From assembly GCA_036339735.1 (NCBI GenBank), contig JAYZAL010000100.1, forward strand, positions 35,419-99,418: 64,000 nt of DNA, in the 5' to 3' direction. Positions 3,989 to 37,105 of the stretch are shown one piece after another. The translations under genes were made by a program, and so were the position numbers. This stretch comes from Candidatus Poribacteria bacterium. Lineage in GTDB: Bacteria > Poribacteria > WGA-4E > UBA9662. Each line of letters opens with the position of its first letter. The stretch's first letter is position 1. The notes below the pieces were generated by a model. That model was not told where the DNA came from and did no database searches. It saw only the letters and a list, made by a program, of their open reading frames with translations.

Positions 3989-4945
3989 ATGTTGAAAAAA
4001 AAACATCTGTATTTTCCACTCATAGCGTTCTGGCTCACTCTACTTACCACCATACCTTGTCGCGCTGCGTTTGTGGACTTTGGTAGTGGCGCTCGTCCCA
4101 TAGGATTTGGCGGTGCGTTTACAGCAATAGCAAACGACGCAAACGCTCTACACTATAATTCTGCAGGTTTAGTCAAATCGAAGACTATACAGCTACATGC
4201 TACTAGAATTTCACACTTGGGAGCTTTAGTAAATTACGATTTTTTGGCTGTGATCTTACCAATCAGTCGGATTGGTACTGTTGGTATTAGTACCGATTCA
4301 CTTGGAGATAATGAGGATATTTACCAAGAACGCCAGATCAGGCTTGCTTATGCCAAATCATTGGGAAAGAAAGTATCATTTGGTATAAGCCTAAAGAATT
4401 TTCGAACTAGTTACGATACTGAAATAGAATCGGTTAAAGATAATCCATATTTTTCTGTCTATCAGACTAACAGTTTTTCTGCTGACTTGGGATTTTTGGT
4501 TTTACCGATTTCAGGCTTACAAATTGGTTTGGCTGTGGATAATTTGATTCCAGCAAATGTTAGTGTAGCAACTGGTGATACAGACCGAGTGCCTGCCAAT
4601 ATCCGTCTTGGTGTAGCCTATGCACTTAATTCAATAGCAGCTACTATTCAGCAGGAATCCTTACAAAATATTTTTAAATCAGCTCATGGTAGTGCAGAAG
4701 TTGGGTGGCGAAATGGTGCAACAATAATAAAAAGTGGAGTTGAAATTTGGATTAATCCAACTATTGCGTTACGTGGAGGCTATTCCTTTTATACTAGCCA
4801 AACTGGTGTATTTTCAATTGGTAATAGCTTACGCTTGCCACTTGGACCAACCCAATTACAACTTGACTATGCTTATCAACTCTTTTTAAACGACTTGGCT
4901 GACAACGGGAACTCCCAAATTTTTTCTTTAGGTATTTCCTTTTAA
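3989..4945 (+). CDS. PorV/PorQ-family outer-membrane beta-barrel protein
   Basis: Signal peptide; hallmark 'GARPIGFGGAFTAIANDANALHYNSAGL'; ends in an aromatic beta-signal 'FSLGISF'. Confidence 0.75.
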   Translation: MLKKKHLYFPLIAFWLTLLTTIPCRAAFVDFGSGARPIGFGGAFTAIANDANALHYNSAGLVKSKTIQLHATRISHLGALVNYDFLAVILPISRIGTVGISTDSLGDNEDIYQERQIRLAYAKSLGKKVSFGISLKNFRTSYDTEIESVKDNPYFSVYQTNSFSADLGFLVLPISGLQIGLAVDNLIPANVSVATGDTDRVPANIRLGVAYALNSIAATIQQESLQNIFKSAHGSAEVGWRNGATIIKSGVEIWINPTIALRGGYSFYTSQTGVFSIGNSLRLPLGPTQLQLDYAYQLFLNDLADNGNSQIFSLGISF

Positions 4946-11418: not shown

Positions 11419-11628
11419 TTGACAAATCAGATAGCCATAATTTCTCAATTCTCAAAAGTATTTGATCAAAATTAAAGAAGGTCGATCTCAAGCCAGTTTA
11501 GAATTGGCACAACCCTCCAAGTGATCTGCCACCAAGTCGAGGAACCAGTTTGTGCTAGAATAAATTGCAGAGCTATACATAAATCATTGAAGAAGGATAT
11601 ACAAGTAAACAGAAATAGACTCAATAAA

Positions 11629-12708
11629 CTAAACTAGCTTGTCTACTACATCTGTATTCAATCGTTGTAAGAGCAAGAGTAATAGGGCCTTAGTGGAATT
11701 GTAATCATCAATGTTCATAATTGAGATGTGGCTGTGGATGTATCTTGTAGGTACACCGAGTACAATTGTAGGAATACCATAACGACTTTTGTGTATAGCT
11801 GCGGCGTTCGTTCCACCCGAATTCCGAACTGCAATTTGGTGGGGAATAGCGTGCTGAACAGCGATTTCAATAACCAAATCGGCTAGAATGGGATTCGCAA
11901 TGTGAGTGGGATCGAATAGCCGAATTTGGCATCCACCTCCTAATCTTCCTTGTGACGCGTCTTGCTCAAAACCAGGCAGGTCATCTGCAGGTGGAGCCTC
12001 CAATACAATCGCCACGTCAGGTCGAATCATTTCGGTCATTGTAATTGCCCCCCTCACTCCGACTTCTTCCTGTACGGACCCAACACCAATTATAGTATTA
12101 GGATGAGCAGAGGCTTTTGCTAGTTCTTTCAAAGTTTCGATTACTAAGGCGACAGCAATTCGGTTATCGAATGCTTTGGCGGAATACAGTTTGGGGTTCT
12201 TTAGGCTCTGAAAACTGGTAGCTGGTACTACCGGGCAACCAGGACGAATTCCATATTCTTCCTCGGCCTGTCTTTGATTTTCGGCACCGACATCAATATA
12301 AAGATCATTGATATCTAATACCTTGTTTTTAGCACTATCACCCAATAGATGAGGTGGGGTAGAGCCGATAATGCCAATAACTTTTTGTTGATTTATCTTC
12401 GATAAAATTCGTACCTTTTGGGCGAGTAGTGTGTGTGTCCACCAGCCACCCAAATTGATAAATTTCACAAAACCACTCGATGTTACCCTTTGAACCATGA
12501 ATCCAACTTCATCGACATGAGAATCAATTAACACACGTGGGCCAGCCGAACGACCTGGCACCATACAGGATATACCACCCATTTTGTCTTGCTTTAGTTC
12601 ACCTATACCTGTTAAGTGATCACGAAAGATATTTGTGACTTCTCGCTCGTAGCCGGGAACCGCATCGGCATTAGTTAAAGTTTTCAGTAAATCGACTGAT
12701 TGAGCCAT
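11629..12708 (-). CDS. M42-family metallo-aminopeptidase
   Basis: 'PGYEREV', 'SHVDEVGFMV', 'LGGWW', 'KAFDNR', 'QEEVGVRGA', 'GGTNA', 'RYIHS'. Confidence 0.9.
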   Translation of the reverse strand: MAQSVDLLKTLTNADAVPGYEREVTNIFRDHLTGIGELKQDKMGGISCMVPGRSAGPRVLIDSHVDEVGFMVQRVTSSGFVKFINLGGWWTHTLLAQKVRILSKINQQKVIGIIGSTPPHLLGDSAKNKVLDINDLYIDVGAENQRQAEEEYGIRPGCPVVPATSFQSLKNPKLYSAKAFDNRIAVALVIETLKELAKASAHPNTIIGVGSVQEEVGVRGAITMTEMIRPDVAIVLEAPPADDLPGFEQDASQGRLGGGCQIRLFDPTHIANPILADLVIEIAVQHAIPHQIAVRNSGGTNAAAIHKSRYGIPTIVLGVPTRYIHSHISIMNIDDYNSTKALLLLLLQRLNTDVVDKLV

Positions 12709-12731
12709 TTTTCAACTACCCTGTCATTAGA

Positions 12732-13541
12732 TTAATGTTGACTTTGATTGTCTACAGCTTGAGAAACTTTGTATTGCAAAAAACGCGGACAAACAGCGTT
12801 GAGCAGAGGAATCCATTTTAACTTGCTCGGTAGATACATTTTTTGTTTTCCTGTTTTGATCGCAGTCAAAATTGACTGAGCACATTCATCGACTTCAATT
12901 GATTCCTTATTGTGTGATCGTTTTTGCGTTCCCATCGGCAATCCTTCTAAGTTAAAGGCATTTTGCCTCAGGTTGGTACCACGAATCCAGCCCAAGTAAA
13001 TGTGTAAAAAGCGAACCATTCCTTTCATCTCAATTTCTAAGGATGCCAAGAACCCTTGAAGAGCATGTTTTGAGGCAGCGTAGCCAGTATGTTCAGGAAA
13101 TCCCATTAAAGCTTGGGCTGTGGACATTTGAGCGATTAAGCCCTGATTCTTTTTGAGATGGGGCAACGCAGACTTCACGCAGTGAACTGCCCCCATATAA
13201 TTTATATCAATCAAGGATTGAAAGAATTGTACATCTTTGATACTTTCGAAATCTGACCACATGCTGATTCCAGCATTCAAAACTAAAACATCAAGTTTCT
13301 CAAACGTGTCAATTGTTTCTTTAACTAAATTTTCGCACTGCTCAGAATCGGTAATATCAGTAGGAATAGCCAAAGCTGTACCACCACTGCTATTGATATC
13401 GGAGGCCAATTCCAACAGCTTGGATTCCGTTCTCGCGGCTAATACAACTGATGCTCCATTGAGGCTTGCTCTTTTCGCTAAAGTAGCTCCAATACCTGAA
13501 GATGCACCCGTGATAACAATTGTTTTCTTATTTAGTTGCAT
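12732..13541 (-). CDS. Classical SDR oxidoreductase (DHRS7-like); candidate acyl/alkyl-DHAP reductase
   Basis: 'ITGASSGIG', 'AAR' (NADPH-type), 'LNAG', 'YAASK'. The specific function is inferred from operon context. Confidence 0.85.
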   Translation of the reverse strand: MQLNKKTIVITGASSGIGATLAKRASLNGASVVLAARTESKLLELASDINSSGGTALAIPTDITDSEQCENLVKETIDTFEKLDVLVLNAGISMWSDFESIKDVQFFQSLIDINYMGAVHCVKSALPHLKKNQGLIAQMSTAQALMGFPEHTGYAASKHALQGFLASLEIEMKGMVRFLHIYLGWIRGTNLRQNAFNLEGLPMGTQKRSHNKESIEVDECAQSILTAIKTGKQKMYLPSKLKWIPLLNAVCPRFLQYKVSQAVDNQSQH

Positions 13542-13562
13542 GTGATATTTGCTTGATTCTAT

Positions 13563-15317
13563 TCAATCTGCTAATACATTATTGCGAATACCAAATACGT
13601 TATTAGGGTCGTGGGAAACTTTCAATTGTCTTATTAGTTCAATACTTGCAGGAGACATAGTGTCAGGTAAAAAATCTTTTCTGAGTTTACCAACACCGTG
13701 GTGATGAGAAATTGAGCCACCGTTCTTCATGATTTCTTCGCGCATAGCATGCTCTATAGAACCAAAAACTACTTCCGGGTCCTTGATTCCTTTCATATAC
13801 ATCCCAAACATGAAGTAAATACAAACACCAGTATGATAGATCTGCGGAATCCGATATGAGAGATACGGTTGTCCAGGAATATTGTGTTCTTCGTGTAGCT
13901 CGAATAATTTATCTTTGGTTTTTTGGCAGACTTGGCGAATTTTACTCCAAGGCACTGATGTCTCCATAGTTTCCCCAATGATATGGTAGTTGGAGAGAAA
14001 GTCTCTAATATAAGCAATCGCGAAAGTGAGCATATACCCTCTTTTACCATTTTCTGGCCCAGCTGGTAATCCCTGATGCTGCTTAGATAATTCGAGAATG
14101 TTCTGTTTTTGGTAAGCAACTTCCTTGGATGCACCTTCCATAACAAAAGTAACTGCACACATCTGGTAAGGATCAAATCCTTTTACCTGAGTGACAAAAA
14201 GCTTTTGCAGGCGTAACATCAATTTTTTAAATCCTTCTGGATGTGGTTTCAGGGCTTGGCCGAAACGGAACTGGATATTATCCACCAATCGAACACTGGC
14301 CGGAATGTAGTTGGTACGAGAAAGTGCCTGAAGGAAATCGACTCCTTTCTGCCAACTAGGAAAGACTGCAGAGGCGTACTCTTGTACTTCAGGTAGTTTG
14401 TGTATCTTGATTACAGCTCTAGTGATAAGTCCTAAATTGCCTTCACTTCCAAATAATAAGTTTTGTGGACGCATCCCCATCGAAACACGCGTGGTCGCTT
14501 GGTTTTGTTCCAATATACCTCTGGGCGTAATTACGGTAATATTTTCAACAATATCTTCAATGTTACCGTATCGGTTTTTTTTCATCCCACTAGCTTGAGT
14601 GGCAATCCAACCACCCAGGGTGGAAAATTCTATGCTATCTGGTTCATGTCCAACCATGTATCCTTGATTACGTAGTTCTTCCTCTAGCTTGGATCCAGTT
14701 ATGCCAGCTTGTACGCACGCACGACCATCTTCGGTATTCACCCACTCAATTTTGTCCATACGACGTGTGTCAATAGCTACGATCATCCTATTTTCAGATT
14801 TTGGTAGTTTGAGGGCACTACTGACACTAGTTCCGCCTCCAAAAGGAACTAGACAAATATCGTGATCTTCAGCAAGCCGAATGAGTTCTACTACTTCTTC
14901 GTCTGACTCGGCATAAAAGACCATGTCGATTGCTTTATCGATCTGACCATATAGGATTTTATAAACTTCTTCTGAAGTAGTTTGTCCATGACTATGGAGC
15001 AAACGATCGACAGAATCCACTGAATAACGATCAGGAGGGAACGTTGATTCTACGGCGGACAAGAAATCTGGATTAATTTGAGGCAGCGGGACGGGCTTAT
15101 GCTCAACTTCAGGTAAAACATCGTCAGGATCGACCTTGATTTGCAGAGATTCCTCGACATAAGGAATAAAGTCAGGCATTACCATCCCACACAGATCATA
15201 TCGGTCTCCTGACAATGTAATAGTTCTATCCTTATGCAAAATAAATTCGGAATCACGAAAGCCCCACTTGTGTCCCCAAGTTTCACCATTAGTGGCGACA
15301 AATTTTTGATCGGCCAT
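13563..15317 (-). CDS. agpS: Alkyl-dihydroxyacetonephosphate synthase (FAD-linked, AGPS/ADPS)
   Basis: 'KWGFRDSEF', 'PFGGGTSVS', 'GHEPDSIEFSTLGGWIATQASGMKKNRYGNIED', 'GSEGNLGLIT', 'PASVRLVDNIQF.FGQALKP', 'GYMLTFAIAYIRDF', 'GGSISHHHGVGKLRK'. Confidence 0.93.
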   Translation of the reverse strand: MADQKFVATNGETWGHKWGFRDSEFILHKDRTITLSGDRYDLCGMVMPDFIPYVEESLQIKVDPDDVLPEVEHKPVPLPQINPDFLSAVESTFPPDRYSVDSVDRLLHSHGQTTSEEVYKILYGQIDKAIDMVFYAESDEEVVELIRLAEDHDICLVPFGGGTSVSSALKLPKSENRMIVAIDTRRMDKIEWVNTEDGRACVQAGITGSKLEEELRNQGYMVGHEPDSIEFSTLGGWIATQASGMKKNRYGNIEDIVENITVITPRGILEQNQATTRVSMGMRPQNLLFGSEGNLGLITRAVIKIHKLPEVQEYASAVFPSWQKGVDFLQALSRTNYIPASVRLVDNIQFRFGQALKPHPEGFKKLMLRLQKLFVTQVKGFDPYQMCAVTFVMEGASKEVAYQKQNILELSKQHQGLPAGPENGKRGYMLTFAIAYIRDFLSNYHIIGETMETSVPWSKIRQVCQKTKDKLFELHEEHNIPGQPYLSYRIPQIYHTGVCIYFMFGMYMKGIKDPEVVFGSIEHAMREEIMKNGGSISHHHGVGKLRKDFLPDTMSPASIELIRQLKVSHDPNNVFGIRNNVLAD

Positions 15318-15333
15318 AATAATACTTTACCTC

Positions 15334-18300
15334 TTATTGGTTATTACTTAAGTCCATTTTGGCTTGGGACTGCAAGTTTATAATTGCATCTCTAACATGG
15401 TTCGCAATTTGCCTGTATTTTTGGTGAGTATTGCCCGCTTTTAAAATATAGTCTGCTGTTGGTCTGATTGGTGAGCCAAAACTAACACTGATATTATTAG
15501 GCTGCGGGAAATTTTGCCCCTTTGGTAAGGCTTGATAACTGCCCTTAATGTAGGCTGGAATAATCGGTACTTTTGCTTCATAAGATAAGAGACCCAAACC
15601 TGACCGGAACTCTTGCACTTCACCTGTGATGGATCGTGTGCCTTCTGGATAAATTAGCAATGCGTAACCATTACTTAACGCTTCTTGAGCAATTCGTACG
15701 CCTTGCAGAAAATTGTCTGTTCGATCCAAAGGTAACACGTTCATTAGTTGACCAAAGAACCATGATTTGAATGAGGTGTTAAAAAAGTAGTCTCGGGCAC
15801 CAAGAACCTTCAGACGTTCAGACTCATTGCCCAAAGCTGTTATAATAGCGCCTGTATCCAAGTGGCTAGAGTGATTAGGTGCGATTATGTATGGCTCATT
15901 TTGAGGGATATAATTGAGACCTTCTGCCCGGAAGGAAAAGACTTGCTTATAGATAATACCCATCCCCAAACGAAAAATTTTGGCCTGAGTGTTATTCTGG
16001 AGATCGGCTTGATGAGAATTCACCTTAGTTAGTGATGGTAAAGGCTCTTTTGAAGATTGTAATGTATTTATAACAGCAACAACATCACCTACAGTTTTTA
16101 TATTTGTGACCAGATTATCAGGTAATATTCGACCCAGTTCGCCTTCTAGTATCAGCAAAAGTTCTACTTGCATTAAAGAATCTAGGCCAAGATCTCCTTC
16201 TAAGTCGGTGCCTTCATTAATCTGATGGCTTGGGACACGGGCAATTCGGGATAACTCGGCAACAATTCGACTGAGTGGTGTATCGGTGGGTTTTATCCCC
16301 GTTTGATTGTCCTTTGTTTTCTGGCTATAATAATCCTCTATTAATTCTTTTATAATTTGGCGATCGACTTGACCTGATTGGTTTTTTGGCAAATTCCGTG
16401 CACGGTCAGTTACCCCGGTCCCTACAGGATTAATCGGCCAGAAGTGAGTTTTATGCACACGTTGATAGCTTGGTAATTCGCTCGCACAAGACCGCACATG
16501 TTCAAGAATTGTAGGTTCATCAGCGTCTTCGGAAGGAACTATAACAGCATAAACCTCCTCCCCAATTTCATCATTGGCTAAACGGCCAACAATGCAAATC
16601 TCTTTTATGTAGTCATGCTTTCCGTAAAGTATTTCTAGTTCGCTGGGATAAATGTTTTTACCCGCTCCTGACACAATGACATCTTTTGTTCGACCTGTTA
16701 GAAATAAATAACCGTCATCATTAAGATAGCCTAGATCTCCGCTGTAGAGTTTGCTAGATTTTAGTACCTTTTCGGTCGCGGTTGGATTATTGAAATAACC
16801 TAACATTAAGCTTGGAGATTCGATGATGATTTCTCCGATACCATTTGAATCAGGCTGATCGATTTTAAGTTGCACACCATCTAGCAAAACTCCAACGGAA
16901 GAACGTAAGCTTTTTTGGTAAGGATTTACGCTAACAACAGGTGCAGTTTCTGTCAAACCATAACCTTGATATAGAACAACACCTAGCTCTAGATAGTTGT
17001 CGTAGACACTGTCTGGGAGTGTCGACCCTCCACTAACCAAGACTCTGAGGCTCTGTCCTACAGATAGGTGAATTTGTTTAATTTGTTCTTGTGTTAACCG
17101 TGGATTCCCTTCATCTGCACGAATTTTTAAGACATATCTTTGTAAACTATCATAAATCATCTTAAATAAACGCGGAACACCAATCATAACTGTTGTCTTG
17201 GTCTCTTTCATCGTTTCTAAAATGATATTGGGGCGTAAAGAATTTAGATATGTTATTGTTGAACCGCTATAAATTGACATTAAAAAGCCACAGGTAAACT
17301 CCAAGGCATGATAAAGTGGCAAAACTGACAGAAAACGATCTTCGGATTGAGGAGGCAACTGTTGTGCTACCGCTAAAACATTGGTAATAAAGCTCCGATG
17401 TGATAGTATCACGCCTTTCGGATCATAGGCAGTACCAGAAGTGAATATGATCGAAGTAATGTCATCAGGTTTAATTTCAACCACTGGCAACTCAATAGAG
17501 GACCCTATCACATCTTCCATTCTTTCACATTCAGCTTGGATATCGCGAATCTCAATTATCTGATTGATCCCACTAGTTAACTCATCTTTGGCCTGTTCAA
17601 GTCGTTCGATCAAATCTGAAGTTGTGAAGATAGCTCTTGCTGAAGTGAAACGCAATAGTGCGTAAACTTCATTGACCGGCGTTTGGCGATCAATGGGTAC
17701 AATTACCATCCCTAATTTAGCGCAAGCTAAATATATAATCCCCCATTCAGGCTGATTATCAGCGAATAGTAAAATTCGATCGGATGGGCGGTATCCATTT
17801 TGCCATAGGCTCCCTGTGATTCTATTCGATAACTCCTCGAATTGACGATAAGTGTAGGTGACCCATTGTTCATTGCGCTTGATTTGTAGCGCGACTTTAT
17901 CAGGTACTTTTTCAGCTTGATAACTGAGCAGTTCCGGAATGGTTTCGAATTGTTGATGTTCACTTACTCTGTTTTTGATTTTTGATTTTTCACTGACACT
18001 ATCTTTATCTTGGATATCTTTCGATTCGGAATCATTGTCATTTGCTCCAGTTGATTCCATATTCAATACGAAACGTTTAATTCCTGGAATATGGACTCGC
18101 TGTAGGTAATCATCCCAATTGAAACTAGAAGCATCAAAGTTGAAGAGGCCTTGTTCTTCAACGGATAATGATCGATGCAAAGCTAATGTCCTGCTAGCTT
18201 CGAATTGATAGTCAAGCCGTACATATGCCCCGTAGATTTTGACGTAATAGAGTAAGCGTTCCAGAGATTTTTGGATTATTGAAAGCTGTCTGCTTTTGCG

Positions 18301-19557
18301 CTTTGACCAGCTAAAAGGTAATTTCTGCAACCACTTTTTGCTATTATCAATTTGTGTATACTTGCCCTCAAAATATCGATTAAAAGAAGTTAAGTCCCTA
18401 AATTTCCATTCTTTTGGTACAATGGATTTGCCATTTCGATCTACCATTGGGTTATTATGAAAATAGGTTTTAGTAGCTCTGTAGAAGGATTGAAACTGGA
18501 TAGGATTAATCGTTCCACTTGCAACTTGGTACACAGCTATCTCTGATACATCGAAAGCTTTTGCCGAGGCCGCTAAGATTGCGTTTACGACTAGGTCGAC
18601 CGGAATCACATCTATCACAATGTCTGGCTTCGCTGGAAAATCAGGCAATCTGCCCTTACCAAAACCTATGATAAGTGGGTCAGCCATTCGTAAGCCATCG
18701 AGCCAGCCAGGAACAGGCTCTTGCCAACTACTTTCAATTATGGAGGGACGCACAATTGCGACGGAGAGATTTTCACATGTTTTCGCAACTATTTGTTCAC
18801 CTAAGTATTTAGTGTAGGTATAAATATCGTTCCACCCGCGAGCCTTGGCATGTTCCAGCCCCGCTTCAATTAGTTCATTCTTCAAATCATTAGCAGGCAA
18901 TTTCGAATCACGGCGAATGTTGGCTCCAATAGCCAACATGTGTTCAAGTTCTTCTTGAATGGTTAGTGGAATATCAACCCCGTTTGACTGTAGTCGGTTG
19001 GCAATTTCTTCGTAGGTTGGATGAAGTTCTTCTGCTACTTCGCCAGGCTTGCTACCACAAGAGTAGGCTGTCGAAATATGGACAAACACGGCGTTGGGGC
19101 AGACACTTGCCAACTCAACCGATCGTTGAGCAGAAATGACGTTCATTAGGACAGCGTCATCAATTGGTGAGTCGAACTCAACAATCGCAGCACTATTAAT
19201 GAAAATTTGCACTTCAGCTGCGAGCTGCTGATAGTCAGAATCAGACAAACCTAGTTTTTCTCTGCTTAGATCCCCCTCGACAGCAAAGACTTTTTCTCGT
19301 ATCCATGCATGAAAATTAGATCCATGAATACTTTTCAGTTGATCAAATACGTGTGACTCGAAGAACTTTGAGAGCCTTTCTTCGGCCGAGACCGTCACAC
19401 CATTTACATTAGTTCGACTACGAATTAATAAGTAGACTTTTTTAACTTGGGGTATGGTCGTTAAAATTTTCGCGACTAGTGGTTGACCGACAAATCCGGT
19501 TGCTCCTGTGATTAGAACGATTTTATCCTGAAATGTCTGACTGATGCTCGTTTTCAT
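15334..19557 (-). CDS. ElbD-like multidomain enzyme: fatty acyl reductase + adenylation (acyl-CoA synthetase-like) + carrier protein + PlsC-type acyltransferase
   Basis: FAR: 'ITGATGFVG', 'HISTAY', 'YTYTKYLGE', 'IVRPSIIES', 'DVIPVDLVVN', 'FDASSFNWDDY'. Adenylation: 'FTSGT..PKG', 'GYGLTE', 'SGDLG'. Carrier: 'DLGLDSL'. Acyltransferase: 'NHSSHLD', 'YPEGTRS'. Confidence 0.9.
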   Translation of the reverse strand: MKTSISQTFQDKIVLITGATGFVGQPLVAKILTTIPQVKKVYLLIRSRTNVNGVTVSAEERLSKFFESHVFDQLKSIHGSNFHAWIREKVFAVEGDLSREKLGLSDSDYQQLAAEVQIFINSAAIVEFDSPIDDAVLMNVISAQRSVELASVCPNAVFVHISTAYSCGSKPGEVAEELHPTYEEIANRLQSNGVDIPLTIQEELEHMLAIGANIRRDSKLPANDLKNELIEAGLEHAKARGWNDIYTYTKYLGEQIVAKTCENLSVAIVRPSIIESSWQEPVPGWLDGLRMADPLIIGFGKGRLPDFPAKPDIVIDVIPVDLVVNAILAASAKAFDVSEIAVYQVASGTINPIQFQSFYRATKTYFHNNPMVDRNGKSIVPKEWKFRDLTSFNRYFEGKYTQIDNSKKWLQKLPFSWSKRKSRQLSIIQKSLERLLYYVKIYGAYVRLDYQFEASRTLALHRSLSVEEQGLFNFDASSFNWDDYLQRVHIPGIKRFVLNMESTGANDNDSESKDIQDKDSVSEKSKIKNRVSEHQQFETIPELLSYQAEKVPDKVALQIKRNEQWVTYTYRQFEELSNRITGSLWQNGYRPSDRILLFADNQPEWGIIYLACAKLGMVIVPIDRQTPVNEVYALLRFTSARAIFTTSDLIERLEQAKDELTSGINQIIEIRDIQAECERMEDVIGSSIELPVVEIKPDDITSIIFTSGTAYDPKGVILSHRSFITNVLAVAQQLPPQSEDRFLSVLPLYHALEFTCGFLMSIYSGSTITYLNSLRPNIILETMKETKTTVMIGVPRLFKMIYDSLQRYVLKIRADEGNPRLTQEQIKQIHLSVGQSLRVLVSGGSTLPDSVYDNYLELGVVLYQGYGLTETAPVVSVNPYQKSLRSSVGVLLDGVQLKIDQPDSNGIGEIIIESPSLMLGYFNNPTATEKVLKSSKLYSGDLGYLNDDGYLFLTGRTKDVIVSGAGKNIYPSELEILYGKHDYIKEICIVGRLANDEIGEEVYAVIVPSEDADEPTILEHVRSCASELPSYQRVHKTHFWPINPVGTGVTDRARNLPKNQSGQVDRQIIKELIEDYYSQKTKDNQTGIKPTDTPLSRIVAELSRIARVPSHQINEGTDLEGDLGLDSLMQVELLLILEGELGRILPDNLVTNIKTVGDVVAVINTLQSSKEPLPSLTKVNSHQADLQNNTQAKIFRLGMGIIYKQVFSFRAEGLNYIPQNEPYIIAPNHSSHLDTGAIITALGNESERLKVLGARDYFFNTSFKSWFFGQLMNVLPLDRTDNFLQGVRIAQEALSNGYALLIYPEGTRSITGEVQEFRSGLGLLSYEAKVPIIPAYIKGSYQALPKGQNFPQPNNISVSFGSPIRPTADYILKAGNTHQKYRQIANHVRDAIINLQSQAKMDLSNNQ

Positions 19558-19684
19558 GAGAGAAGAAAATCACCTTCTGCTTTTTGTGTCGTATCAAGTC
19601 GACTTAAACTAATACTAAAATGGGCTATGGTATTCTTTGAATGGGCTTGCGCTTGCGGATACGTCCGAAGGGTTGCAGACTGCA

Positions 19685-19714
19685 AGTATAAGAAAATACT
19701 GATCGAGATGTCAA
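19685..19714 (-). promoter_or_regulatory. Candidate sigma70 promoter of the ether-lipid operon
   Basis: Minus-strand TTGACA (19714-19709), 18-nt spacer, TATACT (19690-19685); implies a leader of about 120 nt before ATG 19557. Confidence 0.55.
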
Positions 19715-19773
19715 TGACAAAACATTTTATCATATTTTATCTAGTTTCATGCGAAAAGAATAAACACTAAGAC

Positions 19774-21090
19774 TTATGGAAAAATATCTGTTAAAGCTAA
19801 AAAAAGCGAATTTATCAATTGATCTATCTCGTCAGTTGTTATAGATAGAGGAGGCATCAGTACAATAGTATTAACCAATGGTCGTAAAATCAGTCCATGT
19901 TTTAAGGCTGCTTGGCATACCCTTATACCTGCCTTTTCTTCAAATTCGAACTCTATCTTGTTTTTTTTGTCTTTTAGAAGTTCAAAAGCGCCAATTAGCC
20001 CAATCGAACGGAGATTACCTACATTTTTATGAGCTGCAAAAATGTTAAGGCGCTCTTTAAAATAGGTAATTTTTTCATCTAATATCAGAAAGAAATTTGG
20101 ATCTTTAAGTAGTCTCAAATTTGCTAATGCAACAGATGCTCCTAGCTGGTTGCCGGTGTAAGTATGACCATGGAAAAAAGTTTTGAGTTGCGTATAATCC
20201 CCCAAAAAAGCCTCGTAAATTCTTTCTGTTGTTAGGGTTGCAGCTAAAGGCAGATAACCACCTGTCAAACCTTTTGCAGTACACAAGATGTCAGGAGATA
20301 CCTCCTCATGCTGACAGGCCCACATACGGCCGGTTCGTCCTAATCCCGTCATCACCTCGTCAACAATAAACAGGATGTCATACTTTAATGCTAACTGCTC
20401 TATCCCTTTTAAAAAACCTCTAGGATGCATAATCATGCCACCTGCACCTTGGACCAAAGGCTCAACAATGATACCTGCTAACAACCCTCGATGTTCATCG
20501 AATATTTGCTCCATTGAATCTAAGCAGACCTCAAGATTACCTTCTTGGCTATGATAGGGAACGGGCGCAGAAATCGAAGGAAAAGTCAAAGGCAAAAAAG
20601 TTTGGTGAAAGAGTGAAATCCCCCCGACACTTACGGCACCTAGTGTGTCTCCATGATAAGCTTGATCTAAGTGTACAAATTGAGTACGTTTTGGTTGACC
20701 CACATGTTGCCAATACTGACAGGCGATTTTCAATGCAACTTCTACAGAAGTAGAGCCATTATCTGAAAAAAAAGTGCGGGTTAAGTTTGGTGGAGCTAAC
20801 GCAACTAACTCCTTAGCTAACTTAATCGCTGGTACATTAGAAAATCCTAGGAGCGTCGAGTGGGCTATTTTTTCAATTTGTTCTATTAGAACCTGATTCA
20901 ATTTTGGGTGATTATGTCCGTGGATATTCGTCCACATAGACGAAATCCCATCAATATAACGATTACCCTCGACGTCAAATAAAAATATTCCTTCTCCTCT
21001 TTCGATTATGCAAACTGACTCTTTTTCCAAGTCAGCCATCTGGGTGAAAGGGTGCCATAAAAATAACTTGTCCCACTGTTCGAGTGTCAT
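19774..21090 (-). CDS. bioA: Adenosylmethionine-8-amino-7-oxononanoate aminotransferase
   Basis: 'WHPFTQM', 'YIDGISSMW..IHGH', 'SDNGSTSVEVALKIA', 'YHGDT.GA', 'DEVMTG.GRTG', 'AKGLTGGYLPL', 'FFHGHTYTGN'. Confidence 0.93.
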   Translation of the reverse strand: MTLEQWDKLFLWHPFTQMADLEKESVCIIERGEGIFLFDVEGNRYIDGISSMWTNIHGHNHPKLNQVLIEQIEKIAHSTLLGFSNVPAIKLAKELVALAPPNLTRTFFSDNGSTSVEVALKIACQYWQHVGQPKRTQFVHLDQAYHGDTLGAVSVGGISLFHQTFLPLTFPSISAPVPYHSQEGNLEVCLDSMEQIFDEHRGLLAGIIVEPLVQGAGGMIMHPRGFLKGIEQLALKYDILFIVDEVMTGLGRTGRMWACQHEEVSPDILCTAKGLTGGYLPLAATLTTERIYEAFLGDYTQLKTFFHGHTYTGNQLGASVALANLRLLKDPNFFLILDEKITYFKERLNIFAAHKNVGNLRSIGLIGAFELLKDKKNKIEFEFEEKAGIRVCQAALKHGLILRPLVNTIVLMPPLSITTDEIDQLINSLFLALTDIFP

Positions 21091-21193
21091 TGGTTCCTTA
21101 TCCTTAAATTGACTGGTAAACTTTCGCTGTGTTTTTCATGTTTACAGTAGGTAGAATATAATCTATCTAAACACGTAATTATATCATTTCTAT

Positions 21194-23443
21194 GTGGACT
21201 CAAGGTACATGCGAAAAATGAAATGCACTCGTTTAGTCCTGTTACTTGTTTCTTTTATCCTTCTGTGTTCGACAGATTTGGTTCTTGGTCAAAGAATTTC
21301 AAAAAAAATCCTCACTGAAGGTGAAGGTAATTTCACTGCACCTATTACTGTCGGAAAAGGCATGCCTTTTTCTATCACTTTTAACGAAATTGAAATCATT
21401 ACAGAAGTGAATATTTCTAGTACGGACTTTAGTAGTACGGTCAAATCGAGTAGCGGGACAATCGACGGGGAACCCCTCACCATTACTTTAGCTCCGGGAA
21501 CCTACACAATTAAAGAAACATACTACGGCTCTGTGGGAGCAGCAAAAACGTTGATTCCTATTCCAACTCTTGAGATACCTGAGATTGTTATCGAGCGGAA
21601 ACTTTCAGTGGGAGCCTTAAGCGAATATACCATTGAGCTCGCGACTACTATTTACAATTTGAGAGTGAAATTGGATGGTGATTTTGAAGGTAGCATGCGT
21701 ATTCGAGAAACAGTTGGAAACCAAGTAGTAGTTCCATTCAAAAGTGTTAAGAAATTGAATAAAGGAACGGAAATTACCTATCAGGCCGAGTTCTCCGCCT
21801 TTGCCGCATCAGAAACCAAGATTAGTAGCCGAGAAATTGTGACACCGGAAGTCTCTCTTAGCTTAAATTCAGATAATCAGATAAAAATCAATTGGTATCA
21901 AATACCAGGTGCGGAAAGCTACCAAGTCTACCGTTCTCTTACACCAACACCTGATTTGGGTAGTATCGATCCAATAGCGAGAGGAGTTACAGAAACCACG
22001 TTTGTTGATGCAAGCGCCGACCTGAATACAGTTTATTACTACAGTGTTTCGGCTATTGGCTTGAATGGTGGTATTCCACAAATAGCAGCAGATGTACCCA
22101 ATGCTACGTTGTGGATTAATGAGAATGGTAGTACATGTGAATACATCGACGGTACAAAAATTGTTTTTCCAGCGAACTTAGCTGGTACTTCCGAGAATCT
22201 TTATTTGGCTTCAGTATCCACGATATCCAACGACTCGGTCATAAAGCTTGAATCTGCTATCGATGAAAAATCTTATGTCGTGTCGATTTTTGGGCAAAAC
22301 CCAGTTTTTAACTTTGATTCGTCAGCTCGTTTAACACTGAAATACTCTGATGGAATAGATAATGAGGTTACAACCCCCCAAATTTTTGCCTTGCGAGGTA
22401 ATAAATGGATACGATTAGTCAACCAAACAACTGACTTAGATAATAACACTGTAACTGCTGACATCAAATCACCAGGTATATATAGTTTAGCCTCATTTGA
22501 GATTAACAAAACTACAGAAAACCCTTGGGACATCAATAGAGACAGCAACGTTAACATATTTGACTTAGTACTAGTTGCAGGTCAGTTTGGTGAGAATGGA
22601 AAAAACTTGAAAGGTGATATTAACGGAGACAATAGTGTTAACATATTCGATTTAGTCTTGGTTGCGAGTCATTTTGGCGAAACTTACGATTCTGCTGCTC
22701 CTACTGTTTTTACTTCCAATTTAGCACCTAGTTTTGAGGTTAGTTTGAGGAGTATTTCAGCTGACAAACGTGATACAACGACTTTTCAGATTCTAATTGA
22801 TGGACTTGACTCTTTAGAACAATTAGCCGGATATCAAGTAACTATCTGCGGATTGGAAAACGATTTAAGGGTTATTGATGCAGGGTCAGTCTTTTTACCC
22901 AGATCGACGTATTCAGTTCCGAACCAACGCAGAGGAGACCAAGTAACAATTAGTGCAGTTGCTTATGGTAAAAAAAATAATAAATCTAAAATTTATACGA
23001 AAGAGCAAGCTGTTTTGACTACATTTCAGTTGAGTAGCGAAGAGAAGGGTATTAGGCTACAGAATGTTCTTCTTTCCAATGTAGATGGTAATTCCATTCC
23101 ATTGGTTATCAATACAGATATTCAGACAACATTGAATGAACATTTGCCAATCAAAACGGAGGTCAAACAGAATTACCCTAATCCGTTCAATCCTGAAACC
23201 TGGATTCCTTTTTCTGTCGATTCAGATACTGTTGTTCGATTAATCGTTTACAACTACGGTGGAGCAGTAATAAGAGAAATCGATTTAGGTGTGGTCAGTC
23301 AAGGCCGTTATATAAATAAAGACGAAGCAATACATTGGGATGGCCGAAATCAGTATGGTGAAGAGGTTGCTAGTGGGGTTTATTTCTACCGTTTGCATAC
23401 CACAAATACTACTTCAGCTAAAAAAATGACCATAATGAAATAA
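21194..23443 (+). CDS. Secreted modular protein: FN3, ZU5-like, dockerin pair, cohesin-like, FlgD-Ig / T9SS-like C-terminal domain
   Basis: Signal peptide; FN3 'INWYQIPGAESYQVYRS...YYYSVSA'; duplicated 'DINRDSNVNIFDLVLVA' / 'GDINGDNSVNIFDLVLVA'; tail 'QNYPNPFNPETWIPF...WDGRNQYGEEVASGVYFYRL'. Start is uncertain (GTG 21194 or a downstream ATG). Confidence 0.8.
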   Translation: MDSRYMRKMKCTRLVLLLVSFILLCSTDLVLGQRISKKILTEGEGNFTAPITVGKGMPFSITFNEIEIITEVNISSTDFSSTVKSSSGTIDGEPLTITLAPGTYTIKETYYGSVGAAKTLIPIPTLEIPEIVIERKLSVGALSEYTIELATTIYNLRVKLDGDFEGSMRIRETVGNQVVVPFKSVKKLNKGTEITYQAEFSAFAASETKISSREIVTPEVSLSLNSDNQIKINWYQIPGAESYQVYRSLTPTPDLGSIDPIARGVTETTFVDASADLNTVYYYSVSAIGLNGGIPQIAADVPNATLWINENGSTCEYIDGTKIVFPANLAGTSENLYLASVSTISNDSVIKLESAIDEKSYVVSIFGQNPVFNFDSSARLTLKYSDGIDNEVTTPQIFALRGNKWIRLVNQTTDLDNNTVTADIKSPGIYSLASFEINKTTENPWDINRDSNVNIFDLVLVAGQFGENGKNLKGDINGDNSVNIFDLVLVASHFGETYDSAAPTVFTSNLAPSFEVSLRSISADKRDTTTFQILIDGLDSLEQLAGYQVTICGLENDLRVIDAGSVFLPRSTYSVPNQRRGDQVTISAVAYGKKNNKSKIYTKEQAVLTTFQLSSEEKGIRLQNVLLSNVDGNSIPLVINTDIQTTLNEHLPIKTEVKQNYPNPFNPETWIPFSVDSDTVVRLIVYNYGGAVIREIDLGVVSQGRYINKDEAIHWDGRNQYGEEVASGVYFYRLHTTNTTSAKKMTIMK

Positions 23444-27157: not shown

Positions 27158-27868
27158 CTAGGCCCTACCATAGACAGGAACAGTTGCCCCATTAATTATA
27201 CTTGCCTGCTCAGAAATCAAGAAACCAACTACCTGGGCAATCTGGTGAGGTTTAACCCAAAGACTGTGGTCCTCATTGGGCATTGCTTGTCGGTTTGTTG
27301 GGGTATCAATAATCGATGGCATAATAGCATTAACGTTGATTTTCTTATCTTTCACCTCTTCAGCAATAGATTCAGTCAATATGCGAACTCCAGCTTTAGC
27401 TGTCGAATAAGCACTCATTCCAGCTGTTCCCTTCAAACCAGCCCTTGCTGAAACATTGATGATTTTCCCATACTGGCGTTCCATCATATGAAATAATACA
27501 GACCGACAGCAGAGAAATACCGACTTGAGGTTCAAATTCATCATAAATTCCCATTCATCCAACGTCATTTCTGCTGTTAGGTTTCCGCCGACAAATCCTC
27601 CAGCTATATTGGCTAACAAATCTATTTTTCCGAATTTTTCCAAAGCCGTTTCTGTCAGTTTATCAACTTCATCAGCTTTGGTAAGGTCGGTTGAGACTAA
27701 TGATACGTCCATCATTTTGTTGCCAATCTTACGCTCAAATAGTTCAATTTCATCCTCAATAAAGGAGGGAACTATTAGACGGTATTGATTTGACAACAGG
27801 TATTGGCAAATGGCGGTTCCCAATGCCCCTGTTCCTCCAGTTACAATTGCTGACTTGTAGTTAGCCAT
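27158..27868 (-). CDS. SDR oxidoreductase (FabG-like)
   Basis: 'VTGGTGALG', 'NIAGG', 'YSTAKAG', 'NAIMPSIIDTP.NR'. Confidence 0.88.
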   Translation of the reverse strand: MANYKSAIVTGGTGALGTAICQYLLSNQYRLIVPSFIEDEIELFERKIGNKMMDVSLVSTDLTKADEVDKLTETALEKFGKIDLLANIAGGFVGGNLTAEMTLDEWEFMMNLNLKSVFLCCRSVLFHMMERQYGKIINVSARAGLKGTAGMSAYSTAKAGVRILTESIAEEVKDKKINVNAIMPSIIDTPTNRQAMPNEDHSLWVKPHQIAQVVGFLISEQASIINGATVPVYGRA

Positions 27869-29162
27869 GAAATTCCTCTTTTGACTTCGTCAAGTTTGTC
27901 TCATTAGATATTGTTTGATCCACTGTCACGCGGTAAATTCGTCTATTATCTGCTTCTAAAACTGAAAGTTTCAATCTATCAATTTGGAAGGTTTCTCCTT
28001 TTTCCGGTACTCGTCCAAAATGATCAATCATTACACCACCAATTGTATCGACACTAACTACTTCTAAATTACTGTTAAAAAAATCGTTAAAATCATCAAT
28101 GTTCATTCGAGCATCAACGGAATAAATATCTGACGATATTTGAATGCACTCAACTTGTTCTTCTGTGTCGTATTCATCCTGAATCTCGCCAACTATTTCT
28201 TCAATAATATCCTCTATTGTTACTAAACCTGCAGTGCCACCATACTCATCAACAATAATTGCTAAGTGTAATCGACTACTCTGCAAGTCTTGAAATAGGT
28301 CCCATATTTTACGGCTTTCTGGCGTAAAATATGGAGGACGACTTGACACAAGCTGTTCTAAATCGACCGTTTCCCCTTTAGACCAACAATCTAACAATTC
28401 TTTGACATGCAAAATACCAATTATATTGTGGCTATGGTCTACTCGATCACGGTACACTGGAATACGAGAGTGCCTAGATTGAATAGCTGCGCGTAAGATT
28501 TCGTCGATACCTGATTTAGCTTCTAGATGAACTATGTCGGTTCGAGGTATCATGATTTCGCGGACTACTTTATCTGGCAGGCCGAGAATTCGAGAAATCA
28601 TCTCGTGTTCTTCGACGTCAAAATCTCCCTGTCTATTTCCCACAGATACGAAGGTTTCCAACAATTCTGGCGAAACAATACTATCTATTTTGATATTCTT
28701 ACCTCCCAAAAGACGTATTGAAAAGCGAGATAGATAAGTCATTGGTAAAATAATTGGAAAAAGTAACCAGCAAACCGGTCGCAGTATATATAGTAACTTA
28801 ATCAATACATTAGTATTGATTGGATAGCTATAGTTCCGTGGAATCAGTTCCACTAGCAAAACGAAAACTAAAATGACAACTAAAGATGGAGCAATTTTTG
28901 GCAGAGAAATGAGAAGTGGAAAAGATAGAGTAAACGCACTCACAATTGACAACCACTTTAGGAGAGCTAAAGCTACGTGATACTTCTGCGGTTGACTGAG
29001 TAAGGTATAGAGGACCTCGTAGTTGCCCCCCCCATCCTCGGCTACTTCTATAACTTGATTCTTATCAAGTCCTTTTAGGAAAGATTCAGCCATCGAAACT
29101 AGAAAAGAAAAAACAACAGATACGAAAATGCCGAAAAAAGTTATACTTTCTATGTCATCCAA
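27861..29162 (-). CDS. corC: HlyC/CorC (hemolysin-family) CNNM-CBS-CorC protein
   Basis: N-terminal TM helices, 'VREIMIPR', 'HSRIPVY', 'AIIVDEYGGTAGLVTIEDIIEEIVGEIQDEYD'; follows phoH-ybeY. Confidence 0.88.
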   Translation of the reverse strand: MDDIESITFFGIFVSVVFSFLVSMAESFLKGLDKNQVIEVAEDGGGNYEVLYTLLSQPQKYHVALALLKWLSIVSAFTLSFPLLISLPKIAPSLVVILVFVLLVELIPRNYSYPINTNVLIKLLYILRPVCWLLFPIILPMTYLSRFSIRLLGGKNIKIDSIVSPELLETFVSVGNRQGDFDVEEHEMISRILGLPDKVVREIMIPRTDIVHLEAKSGIDEILRAAIQSRHSRIPVYRDRVDHSHNIIGILHVKELLDCWSKGETVDLEQLVSSRPPYFTPESRKIWDLFQDLQSSRLHLAIIVDEYGGTAGLVTIEDIIEEIVGEIQDEYDTEEQVECIQISSDIYSVDARMNIDDFNDFFNSNLEVVSVDTIGGVMIDHFGRVPEKGETFQIDRLKLSVLEADNRRIYRVTVDQTISNETNLTKSKEEFHG

Positions 29163-36986: not shown

Positions 36987-37105
36987 CTTCTTAACTCCTT
37001 CCGGTATGAAATCATATCTGACAATCAAACGATCGAGTAAAATCGGCAACTTCTAATTGTGCGGATATCGGTTGAATTTGTCAATACAAAAACATGCGTA
37101 CATAC

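Follow-up and report, generated by a model that had tools for sequence, protein, structure and literature searches.

Does a bacterial protein that looks like a eukaryotic alkyl-dihydroxyacetonephosphate synthase (AGPS) along its whole length owe this look to a kinship with eukaryotes, and what would its gene do in a bacterium? The question is raised by an open reading frame, agps, found in a stretch of 64,000 nucleotides (hereafter the window) from a Candidatus Poribacteria genome. Our analysis indicates that agps very probably encodes a working bacterial alkyl-DHAP synthase, predicted to belong to a three-gene ether-lipid operon of free-living marine Poribacteria. The features discussed below are collected in Table 1.

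Table 1. Features of the agps locus (positions in the window)
Feature	Position	Strand	Basis
agps (alkyl-dihydroxyacetonephosphate = alkylglycerone-phosphate synthase, FAD enzyme), 584 aa	13563..15317	minus	open reading frame, Pfam, match to 4bby
elbD-like gene (P0002), 1407 aa	15334..19557	minus	Pfam, motifs
short-chain dehydrogenase/reductase (SDR), candidate acyl/alkyl-DHAP reductase, 269 aa	12732..13541	minus	Pfam, NCBIfam, position
M42 aminopeptidase, 359 aa	11629..12708	minus	Pfam Peptidase_M42, E 5.4e-88
promoter-like site (TTGACA, 18 nt, TATACT)	19685..19714	minus	best scan match, 11/12

The agps gene and its product

In the open-reading-frame listing, agps is a single frame with an ATG start; it is devoid of introns, and the sequence AAGAGG lies 8–13 nt upstream of the ATG. 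Its translation contains all the AGPS motifs listed in a preliminary description of this DNA, namely HKWGFRDSEF...LSGDRYDLCGMVMPDF, the segments HEPDSIEFSTLGGWIATQASGMKKNRYGNIED, PASVRLVDNIQFRFGQALKP and GYMLTFAIAYIRD, and both CIYF and SHHHGVGKLRK. Pfam recognizes a PCMH-type FAD_binding_4 domain (PF01565, residues 131–268, E 9.9e-36) followed by a FAD-oxidase C-terminal cap domain (FAD-oxidase_C, PF02913, residues 308–575, E 1.9e-37), as expected of an AGPS.

The alignment with guinea-pig AGPS (PDB 4bby; E 2.6e-153, 515 bits) extends from residue 16 to residue 579 of the window protein, i.e. from residue 94 to residue 656 of the chain, and thus includes the AGPS-specific N-terminal domain, in which W18 and G19 are invariant across 26 aligned homologues. 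By contrast, other FAD oxidases from the PDB match the window protein only from residue about 113–139 on, and the GlcD and D-lactate dehydrogenase relatives match it only at about 130–350, with 58–148 bits. The protein is therefore recognized as an AGPS rather than a distant FAD-linked oxidase, in agreement with the preliminary description. Residues P158, G160, G161 and T163 of the GGGT motif are invariant across the 26 homologues as well, and so are R343, Y501 and H538–540. The last three align with guinea-pig Arg419, Tyr578 and His615–617, which we take to be the substrate-binding arginine, the catalytic tyrosine and the HHH loop, respectively; in the printed alignment, the 4bca chain has a phenylalanine where AGPS has the tyrosine (the position of Y501). 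Note that the first conserved block, aligned from guinea-pig residue 94 on, is preceded by only 15 residues; the protein thus lacks the extended N-terminal presequence of its animal counterpart, and the earlier remark that the protein has no peroxisomal presequence is borne out. The gene also shows the genomic link expected of an AGPS, since its upstream neighbour encodes both a fatty acyl reductase (FAR) and a DHAP acyltransferase domain; links of this type are also seen in other phyla and as gene fusions. Judged by its sequence, the window protein is a full-length, true AGPS.

Genomic context and a proposed ether-lipid route

The elbD-like gene, which terminates 16 nt upstream of the agps start codon, encodes in one chain a fatty acyl reductase (NAD_binding_4 and Sterile), an AMP-binding, AMP-forming acyl ligase, a PP-binding carrier and an acyltransferase of the PlsC/GNPAT (AGPAT/GNPAT-like) type, in that order, which is the composition of an ElbD-type protein (Pfam domain spans 16–327, 426–499, 546–922, 1097–1163 and 1210–1338). 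From the Pfam matches and the translation, which contains the motifs GATGFVG, GLDSL (with the carrier serine) and NHSSHLD (HX4D), the four domains look intact. Of 81 genomes searched in the Poribacteria phylum, 76 have ElbD homologues, whose 45–52% identity fits the published poribacterial elbD; a search of one fragmented Cystobacter MAG gave partial matches only.

Downstream, the SDR gene starts 21 nt past the agps stop. Its product is recognized by Pfam (adh_short, E 4.4e-47) and by NCBIfam NF004825 (249.6 bits, cut-off 215), and a PDB search returned generic short-chain reductases only, with no match that singles out a known acyl/alkyl-DHAP reductase; it is the conserved position of the gene, and this solely, that makes the SDR a candidate for that function. 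We surveyed the neighbourhood of 80 agps loci from GTDB: an SDR homologue immediately follows agps on the same strand in 16, and a FAR-like gene immediately follows it in 20, of the 75 loci with enough downstream DNA, while an acyltransferase gene lies directly upstream in 6 of the 72 loci included in the upstream count. Loci L010 and L004–L006, which come from the window's own genus and from genus g3, repeat the order elbD–agps–SDR. The short gaps between the three genes suggest a single transcript. The M42 aminopeptidase gene follows on the same strand, 23 nt past the SDR gene, with which it may be co-transcribed; only the window's own genus (L010, L004 and L005) retains it at this place, and we know of no link between this peptidase and lipid synthesis. 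With BioA encoded upstream of the elbD-like gene, and the SDR and M42 peptidase downstream of agps, the remaining elb genes are not adjacent in the window.

A promoter-like site lies within the 216 nt that precede the elbD-like gene. It is a weak pointer only, because the scan for promoters and terminators found sites to be no commoner than in shuffled sequences (20 versus 24.6). Parts of the elbD-like gene, agps and the SDR gene are represented in contigs from two RNA libraries, one contig (15292–15832) crossing the elbD/agps junction, and two RNA-library runs cover 27/30 and 21/30 bins of the stretch; such libraries can hold DNA, so that these contigs are no proof of transcription.

In the route that we propose, the ligase domain of the ElbD-like protein would activate a fatty acid and load it onto the protein's own carrier domain. 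The N-terminal reductase domain would convert part of the acyl pool into fatty alcohol, and the C-terminal acyltransferase domain would place an acyl group onto DHAP. AGPS, via its FAD, would then put the fatty alcohol in place of the acyl group on acyl-DHAP, and the keto group of the resulting 1-O-alkyl-DHAP would be reduced by the SDR, giving 1-O-alkyl-glycerol-3-phosphate for ordinary phospholipid synthesis. The expected products are alkyl (plasmanyl) lipids rather than plasmalogens, since a search for the PEDS1/CarF desaturase (PF10520) found none in the genome itself (92% complete), which is weak evidence as the control genomes likewise gave no signal.

More tentatively, ElbD might supply AGPS with both fatty alcohol and acyl-DHAP on a carrier-linked line completed by the SDR, and agps–SDR might travel among marine bacteria (Marinimicrobia, pelagic Poribacteria) as a mobile module that is plugged into resident lipid genes; this fuller scheme is possible, if rather doubtful. 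If true, the operon would explain the workings of the poorly understood ElbD route. Being intact, recovered in independent seawater assemblies and represented in RNA libraries, the elbD–agps–reductase operon would be well suited to a test of whether ElbD supplies AGPS.

The adjacency of elbD and agps need not mean a single pathway, since the ElbD and AGPS of Myxococcus xanthus are read as two separate routes, the loss of elbD cutting ether lipids strongly and that of MXAN_1676, the AGPS gene, slightly, according to the account in PMC9131029. The poribacterial proteins could similarly act in parallel, independent ether-lipid routes, their genes being neighbours through co-regulation or a chance landing of agps–SDR. 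Such independence would suit genus g2, of the same family, in which elbD and agps lie on different contigs. It would also suit the distribution of the two proteins: AGPS was found in 3/3 sampled genomes of the window's family (f1) and in 0/147 genomes of eight other families of the phylum, whereas ElbD is so widespread that it works without AGPS in most relatives. However, this reading accords poorly with gaps as short as 16 and 21 nt, with the recurrence of the elbD/agps juxtaposition in an Acidobacteriota MAG (L027) and with the fusion of FAR, acyltransferase and AGPS in a single eukaryotic chain, as seen in a Pfam analysis of 31 long homologues. Moreover, AGPS requires acyl-DHAP and fatty alcohol, the very products predicted for the acyltransferase and FAR domains next door. 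We regard parallel routes as unlikely, and favour the reading in which the three genes form one ether-lipid operon.

Kinship with eukaryotic and bacterial AGPS

The window AGPS might nevertheless be specifically related to the eukaryotic enzymes, either through a recent eukaryote-to-bacterium transfer or as the bacterial lineage that is sister to the animal-type enzyme or gave rise to it. The preliminary description had stressed a eukaryotic look along the whole length, and this stands insofar as the animal-type motifs are present and the alignment with guinea-pig AGPS runs end to end, N-terminal domain included. With 42.7–43.3% identity, the window protein is also closer to animal AGPS (bird, lancelet, oyster and sea anemone) than are the dictyostelid (33%), fungal (36%) and diatom (38%) proteins. 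But no special closeness accompanies this look, since other bacterial copies are equally close: with pigeon AGPS as the query, the compared bacterial copies range from 41 to 45% identity and the window protein takes a middle place (window 42.7%, own genus 43.1%, Poribacteria g2 44.4%, Acidobacteriota 44.7%, Cystobacter 45.2%). The window AGPS thus resembles the animal enzyme no more than hundreds of other bacterial AGPS do. Its identity to those of Cystobacter and Archangium (43–44%) equals that to animal AGPS, and is far higher to AGPS from Marinimicrobia (65–68%, the nearest taxon-named copies), Cyanobacteria and Acidobacteriota (56–60%) and Chloroflexota (57–59%). On these comparisons, the eukaryotic look is a property of the whole AGPS family.

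Trees were built under LG+G4 on 114 rows, and under both LG+G4 and a PMSF mixture on 65 rows hand-picked from the 114; those dropped were mostly unnamed representatives and duplicate taxa, and phylum counts therefore refer to the 65 rows kept. In the LG+G4 tree of 65 rows, the window AGPS falls inside a 49-row clade (UFBoot 100, SH-aLRT 99) that includes 35/35 taxon-named bacterial rows and excludes the animals, Heterolobosea, one oomycete, alveolates and one fungus. It is nested further within this clade at 100/99, 99/96 and 100/100, i.e. four well-supported branches deep in bacteria of about 17 differently labelled groups. The Marinimicrobia AGPS are joined to the window clade at 100/100, while those of Cystobacter and Archangium (Myxococcota) belong to a different subclade; the PMSF tree agrees with this placement. 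An AU test rejects the union of the window subclade with the animal/heterolobosean clade (delta lnL 296.5, p 7.7e-10). Note that the AU tests were run under LG+G4, which rejected 5/71 true clades in the tool's own trials, and that the groups tested were chosen after the first tree had been viewed, family f1 having however been defined earlier.

The window AGPS thus lies neither within nor beside a eukaryotic clade from which other bacteria are excluded. The preliminary description, which held that it may branch with or next to eukaryotic AGPS, had called for a maximum-likelihood tree and had itself named nesting inside a broad bacterial clade as the outcome that would speak against it; this is the outcome obtained. 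Together with the lack of introns, the bacterial housekeeping flanks and the absence of any GC anomaly, these results make a specific eukaryotic kinship highly improbable. In its favour, a root placed on the Dictyostelium-type group turns the classic eukaryotic AGPS into a grade beneath the bacterial clade, so that both the root and the direction of the relation between bacterial and eukaryotic AGPS may be read either way. Inside the bacterial clade sits a second eukaryotic lineage, a diatom-containing clade of megaproteins whose AGPS domain groups with bacteria and not with animal AGPS, a placement relevant to the published statement that AGPS carried too little signal to be placed. Considered with the grade, this lineage leaves room for more than one passage of AGPS between bacteria and eukaryotes. 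As for agps, the trees make it one tip of a very large radiation of bacterial AGPS, which earlier work on marine and sponge metagenomes has documented, and the window gene itself does not have the bearing on the origin of eukaryotic ether lipids that had been proposed for it.

The AGPS of family f1 come in two unrelated versions, their monophyly being rejected by the AU test (delta lnL 358.7, p 1.9e-94), and their restriction to this family of the phylum points to transfer between bacteria. Most likely, the window agps and its reductase, which are nearest to the Marinimicrobia version, were exchanged between marine bacteria and set beside a native elbD. The family would then clearly illustrate how lipid genes pass between phyla of marine bacteria.

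The contig, whose integrity the preliminary description had advised checking, is sound. The GC content is 0.41–0.42 around agps and 0.38–0.45 elsewhere in the window. Contigs from seawater assemblies span all gene junctions and bridge both ends of agps: those of one study (X2) cover 11596–14810 and 14896–15748, and one from a separate study (X4) covers 12565–15948, with 0–2 mismatches each. In fourteen DNA runs, which come from at least eight seawater studies, the share of the sampled words that is present is 0.76 or more. The flanking housekeeping genes (MraY, RecJ, LigA and SecD) are bacterial, the LigA matches with taxon names are Candidatus Poribacteria in 7/7 cases, and the AGPS of one genome of the same family is identical to a protein that NCBI names Poribacteria. 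These two results led us to discard a Marinimicrobia origin of the genome, which the best taxon-named AGPS matches had suggested. The host is a free-living, pelagic marine member of Candidatus Poribacteria. That the frame is an assembly chimera or a eukaryotic contaminant in a bacterial bin, a suspicion that a 107-contig draft with 2.4% estimated contamination might invite, is hardly credible for a gene embedded in a contig at least 99 kb long, with even GC, with both junctions bridged by independent assemblies, and with the same locus in two other genomes of the genus (97% and 88% identity).

Comparison with known systems

Mammalian peroxisomal AGPS (PDB 4BBY; mutants 4BC7 and 4BCA) and the window AGPS share a three-part build, with N-terminal, FAD-binding and cap domains. 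Unlike the guinea-pig enzyme, the window protein is without the N-terminal presequence of roughly 90 residues, is operon-encoded and belongs to a separate bacterial clade.

In M. xanthus, MXAN_1676 forms an operon with MXAN_1675 (FAR-acyltransferase) and MXAN_1674, and its role in ether lipids has been shown genetically, as described in PMC9131029 and PMC13012113. By description, that operon and the window are alike in having a bacterial agps beside FAR and GNPAT-like acyltransferase genes. However, the partner in the window is of the four-domain ElbD type, which adds a ligase and a carrier, and lies upstream, and the third gene encodes a classical SDR instead of a NAD-epimerase-family protein. 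The Myxococcota AGPS of Cystobacter and Archangium, less than half identical to the window protein, have a FAR-like gene downstream. The M. xanthus ElbD, encoded in the elbA–E cluster, is described as comprising FAR1-like, acyl-CoA synthetase, ACP and AGPAT-like acyltransferase parts (PMC9131029), the domain order of the window's ElbD-like protein, the likeness being one of described domain order; in the window, however, elbD is directly followed by agps, away from the other elb genes. A poribacterial elbD homologue, and the presence of elbD and agps in the same Poribacteria MAGs, have been reported (10.64898/2026.06.23.733905).

Two Marinimicrobia (Marinisomatota) loci (L011 and L040) have the arrangement acyltransferase–AGPS–SDR. 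They share with the window the SDR (49–53% identity), but have a small, separate acyltransferase (open frames of 244–248 aa) in the place of ElbD, and the two nearest Marinimicrobia genomes gave no FAR match when searched with residues 1–500 of the ElbD-like protein. As stated in PMC11868695, agps homologues occur in 49/134 Marinisomatota MAGs.

Among eukaryotes, FARAT (Tetrahymena, Dictyostelium and others), as described in PMC13012113, is without the ligase and carrier domains of the window's ElbD-like protein, and the FAR–acyltransferase–AGPS megaproteins, found on eukaryotic contigs, have extra ACBP and aminotransferase-like domains. The joining of catalytic parts in one chain, in both FARAT and the megaproteins, supports a single pathway. 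With bacterial AGPS, those of Poribacteria and Marinisomatota included, already in print (10.64898/2026.06.23.733905; PMC11868695), the window agps is a new AGPS member of a kind already known in bacteria.

The alkyl-DHAP synthase and its likeness to eukaryotic enzymes

The alkyl-DHAP synthase (AGPS) gene was correctly called, and the evolutionary reading attached to it in the preliminary description is overstated. The translation contains all the sequence segments quoted there, and Pfam recognizes FAD_binding_4 and FAD-oxidase_C in it. Among solved structures, the top match is guinea-pig AGPS (4bby; 515 bits, E 2.6e-153, query residues 16-579 against chain residues 94-656); Dictyostelium AGPS (2uuu) scored 312 bits, and other FAD oxidases aligned through the FAD domain alone. 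As had been noted, the presequence is absent: nothing in the window protein corresponds to the ~90 residues with which the animal enzyme begins. Residues R343, Y501 and H538-540 align with guinea-pig Arg419, Tyr578 and His615-617, which we take to be the substrate-binding residue, the catalytic residue and the HHH loop, respectively, and are unchanged across an alignment of 26 diverse homologues.

Cluster look-ups together with a profile search supplied named eukaryotic sequences, among them those of animals, Pharyngomonas, oomycetes, Chromera, apicomplexans, a glomeromycete, a diatom and a dictyostelid; the last was recognized by its 1092 bits to 2uuu. The window AGPS is 42.7-43.3% identical to animal AGPS, 43-44% to the Cystobacter and Archangium proteins, 65-68% to those of Marinimicrobia and 32% to the dictyostelid one. 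The special likeness to eukaryotes that had been proposed thus dissolves, and the motifs quoted for it are family-wide. Measured from pigeon AGPS, identity is 41-45% for the bacterial copies that were compared, 42-46% for alveolates, 38% for the diatom, 36% for the fungus and 33% for the dictyostelid.

Three trees were computed (LG+G4, 114 rows; LG+C20 PMSF, 65 rows; and, for those 65 rows again, a careful LG+G4 search supported by ultrafast bootstraps), and all three agree. The careful tree contains a 49-row clade (UFBoot/SH-aLRT 100/99) that takes in each of the 35 taxon-named bacterial rows and one eukaryotic fusion clade; animals, Heterolobosea, an oomycete, alveolates and a fungus lie outside it. 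The window sequence is nested within this clade in successive groups of 27 rows (100/99), 19 rows (99/96) and 7 rows, the last with Marinimicrobia (100/100). Union of the 7-row clade with the animal/heterolobosean clade is rejected by the AU test (delta lnL 296.5, p 7.7e-10). Nesting of this kind, inside a broad bacterial clade set apart from eukaryotic AGPS, was the outcome named beforehand as refuting the proposal that the sequence branches with or next to eukaryotic AGPS, and that proposal is contradicted. The classic eukaryotes form a grade when the Dictyostelium-type group is taken as outgroup, and the root itself is not inferred from the trees; hence no direction of between-domain transfer can be read from them, which matches a remark in section 11 of PMC13012113 that AGPS carries too little signal.

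Distribution of AGPS and its probable exchange between bacterial phyla

AGPS is widespread. The first protein search gave at least 5884 matches among 8000 candidates scored, the top ones being metagenome proteins (60-99% identity) assigned, where named, to Marinimicrobia or Acidobacteriota. At an E cut-off of 0.001, an exhaustive search of 50%-identity representatives returned 13147 proteins, and at 1e-30 it returned 833. In GTDB contigs (one genome per species), at least 597 relatives are encoded among the 600 pattern matches listed; the best 80 of these loci come from Neomarinimicrobiota, Cyanobacteria, Chloroflexota, Acidobacteriota, Latescibacterota, Myxococcota, Gemmatimonadota, Deinococcota, Spirochaetota, Actinomycetota, Pseudomonadota, Binatia and others. 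For Black Sea MAGs, PMC11868695 lists Agps homologues in 49/134 Marinisomatota, 67/92 Latescibacterota and 120/347 Myxococcota.

Within the phylum, AGPS is confined in our samples to the window's family: it was found in 3/3 and 6/6 genomes of this family (phylum and relatives samples, respectively), and in 0/147 genomes of eight other families and 0/34 genomes of three other families. The gene upstream of agps, which is ElbD-like, is nearly universal in the phylum: 76 of the 81 genomes sampled carry it (45-52% identity; e.g. G064, G069, G085). In some genomes of genus g9, it is split between reductase and ligase into open frames of ~536 and ~881 aa, as is a variant described in a sponge-symbiont preprint (10.64898/2026.06.23.733905).

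The family also holds a second, unrelated AGPS version, in genus g2 (G003, G005 and G006; loci L007-L009), which has a hydrophobic N-terminal extension (in P0127, a stretch of I, L, V and A at the very start). By the genome search, this version is only 42-51% identical to the window AGPS, and it groups with Latescibacterota (100/97); the copies of the window's genus and of genus g3 group with Marinimicrobia. Constraining the family's AGPS sequences to form one group lowers the log-likelihood by 358.7 units (p 1.9e-94). The elbD and agps genes lie on separate contigs in g2 and adjoin in the window's genus and g3. On the simplest reading, elbD would be native to the lineage, and agps with the downstream short-chain reductase (SDR) gene would have been gained by transfer at least twice, a Marinimicrobia-like lineage being the source or the recipient in one case. 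GC is even across the window and gives no sign of a recent transfer event.

The assembly is sound at this locus: contigs from two different studies span the junctions around the SDR gene, agps and elbD at 0-2 mismatches, and two more genomes of the genus carry the same locus (97% and 88% identity). The genome (4.32 Mb, 107 contigs) is 92% complete. All seven taxon-named matches of the window LigA are Candidatus Poribacteria (61% and ~54% identity), one more being labelled 'bacterium' only, and the AGPS of G003 is identical, at every alignment column retained for the tree, to a protein to which NCBI gives the name Poribacteria. Since 14 DNA runs from at least eight sea water studies hold the stretch 11500-21200 almost whole, the organism is pelagic.

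Fusion proteins and other AGPS groups

Among the representatives are proteins of 1300-2700 aa that combine ACBP, a DegT-like aminotransferase domain, FAR (fatty acyl reductase), acyltransferase and AGPS in one chain (P0135, P0138, P0140, P0144 and others; metagenome loci L093:6923-13890 and L092:551-7763). Two contigs encoding them are eukaryotic, as judged from the neighbours Rad1, BCAS2, TMEM144 and trypsin and from an intron-looking gap of 269-318 nt that splits the gene. In all three trees, their AGPS domains group with the diatom transcript P0167 inside an otherwise bacterial clade, away from animal AGPS. One full-text literature search and a term search of PMC13012113 yielded no description of a FAR-acyltransferase-AGPS triple fusion.

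Acyltransferase-AGPS fusions also exist (P0128, 810 aa; P0224, 801 aa), and P0128 groups with bacterial rows in all three trees. Very long open frames run into AGPS at several GTDB loci (among L057, L066, L031, L023 and L032), reaching 1265 aa in a Trueperaceae MAG and 1040 aa in a Leptospirales MAG, which could reflect additional fusions or simply upstream DNA that lacks stop codons. The Dictyostelium-type enzyme falls in a separate group (P0217, P0225, P0227, P0241, P0242 and P0257; ~30% identity) together with other proteins, one of which is encoded on a 604,724-base contig, so that eukaryotic AGPS occupies at least three separate places in the family tree.

Gene neighbourhood and proposed pathway

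Features of the AGPS locus and of the surrounding window
Feature	Position	Strand	Remarks
agps (AGPS)	13563-15317	-	ORF, 584 residues
ElbD-like gene (P0002)	upstream of agps, 16-nt gap	-	1407 aa; FAR, AMP-binding ligase, carrier, acyltransferase domains
SDR	downstream of agps, 21-nt gap	-	269 aa; short-chain reductase
M42 aminopeptidase	23 nt after SDR		
BioA	216 nt upstream of ElbD-like gene		
PorV/PorQ-family protein	3989-4945	+	91.9 bits, cut-off 90
GldE-like CNNM protein	27861-29162	-	
Large ORF	33207-37049	-	1280 aa
Large ORF	37106-39163	-	685 aa
Large ORF	30820-32550	-	576 aa
Large ORF	21194-23443	+	749 aa

The ElbD-like gene, agps and the SDR gene are tightly packed on one strand. The region's best promoter-like site sits in the gap between BioA and the ElbD-like gene, the overall count of such sites being no higher than in shuffled sequences. 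Two RNA libraries yielded contigs covering parts of all three genes, and one such contig spans the elbD/agps junction; they hint at expression and fall short of proof because such libraries can carry DNA. Elsewhere, the window has the genes of an ordinary bacterial chromosome (MraY, RecJ, RelA/SpoT, LigA, SecD, sigma-54 regulators). Its PorV/PorQ-family and GldE-like proteins suggest that this poribacterial genome encodes parts related to type IX secretion or gliding, and the four large ORFs have no NCBIfam match at E 1e-10.

In the best 80 GTDB loci, the gene directly downstream of agps is an SDR gene in 16 of 75 cases and FAR-like in 20 of 75, the latter being the arrangement of myxobacteria and gemmatimonads; the gene directly upstream encodes an acyltransferase in 6 of 72, and a full ElbD-like gene is present in 2/80, in the window's own genus and in an Acidobacteriota MAG. 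This synteny supports the view that the ElbD-like protein, AGPS and SDR act in one pathway. MAGs that carry both elbD and agps have already been reported from Poribacteria, Acidobacteriota and Latescibacterota (preprint 10.64898/2026.06.23.733905). The modest interest of the locus lies in how its operon is laid out and in the signs that bacterial phyla have exchanged such genes. The ether-lipid mechanism that we propose would be patterned on the eukaryotic peroxisomal route. The main caution comes from M. xanthus genetics, in which, according to PMC9131029, ElbD works largely without AGPS; the same source gives M. xanthus ElbD the four-domain order found in the window's ElbD-like protein.
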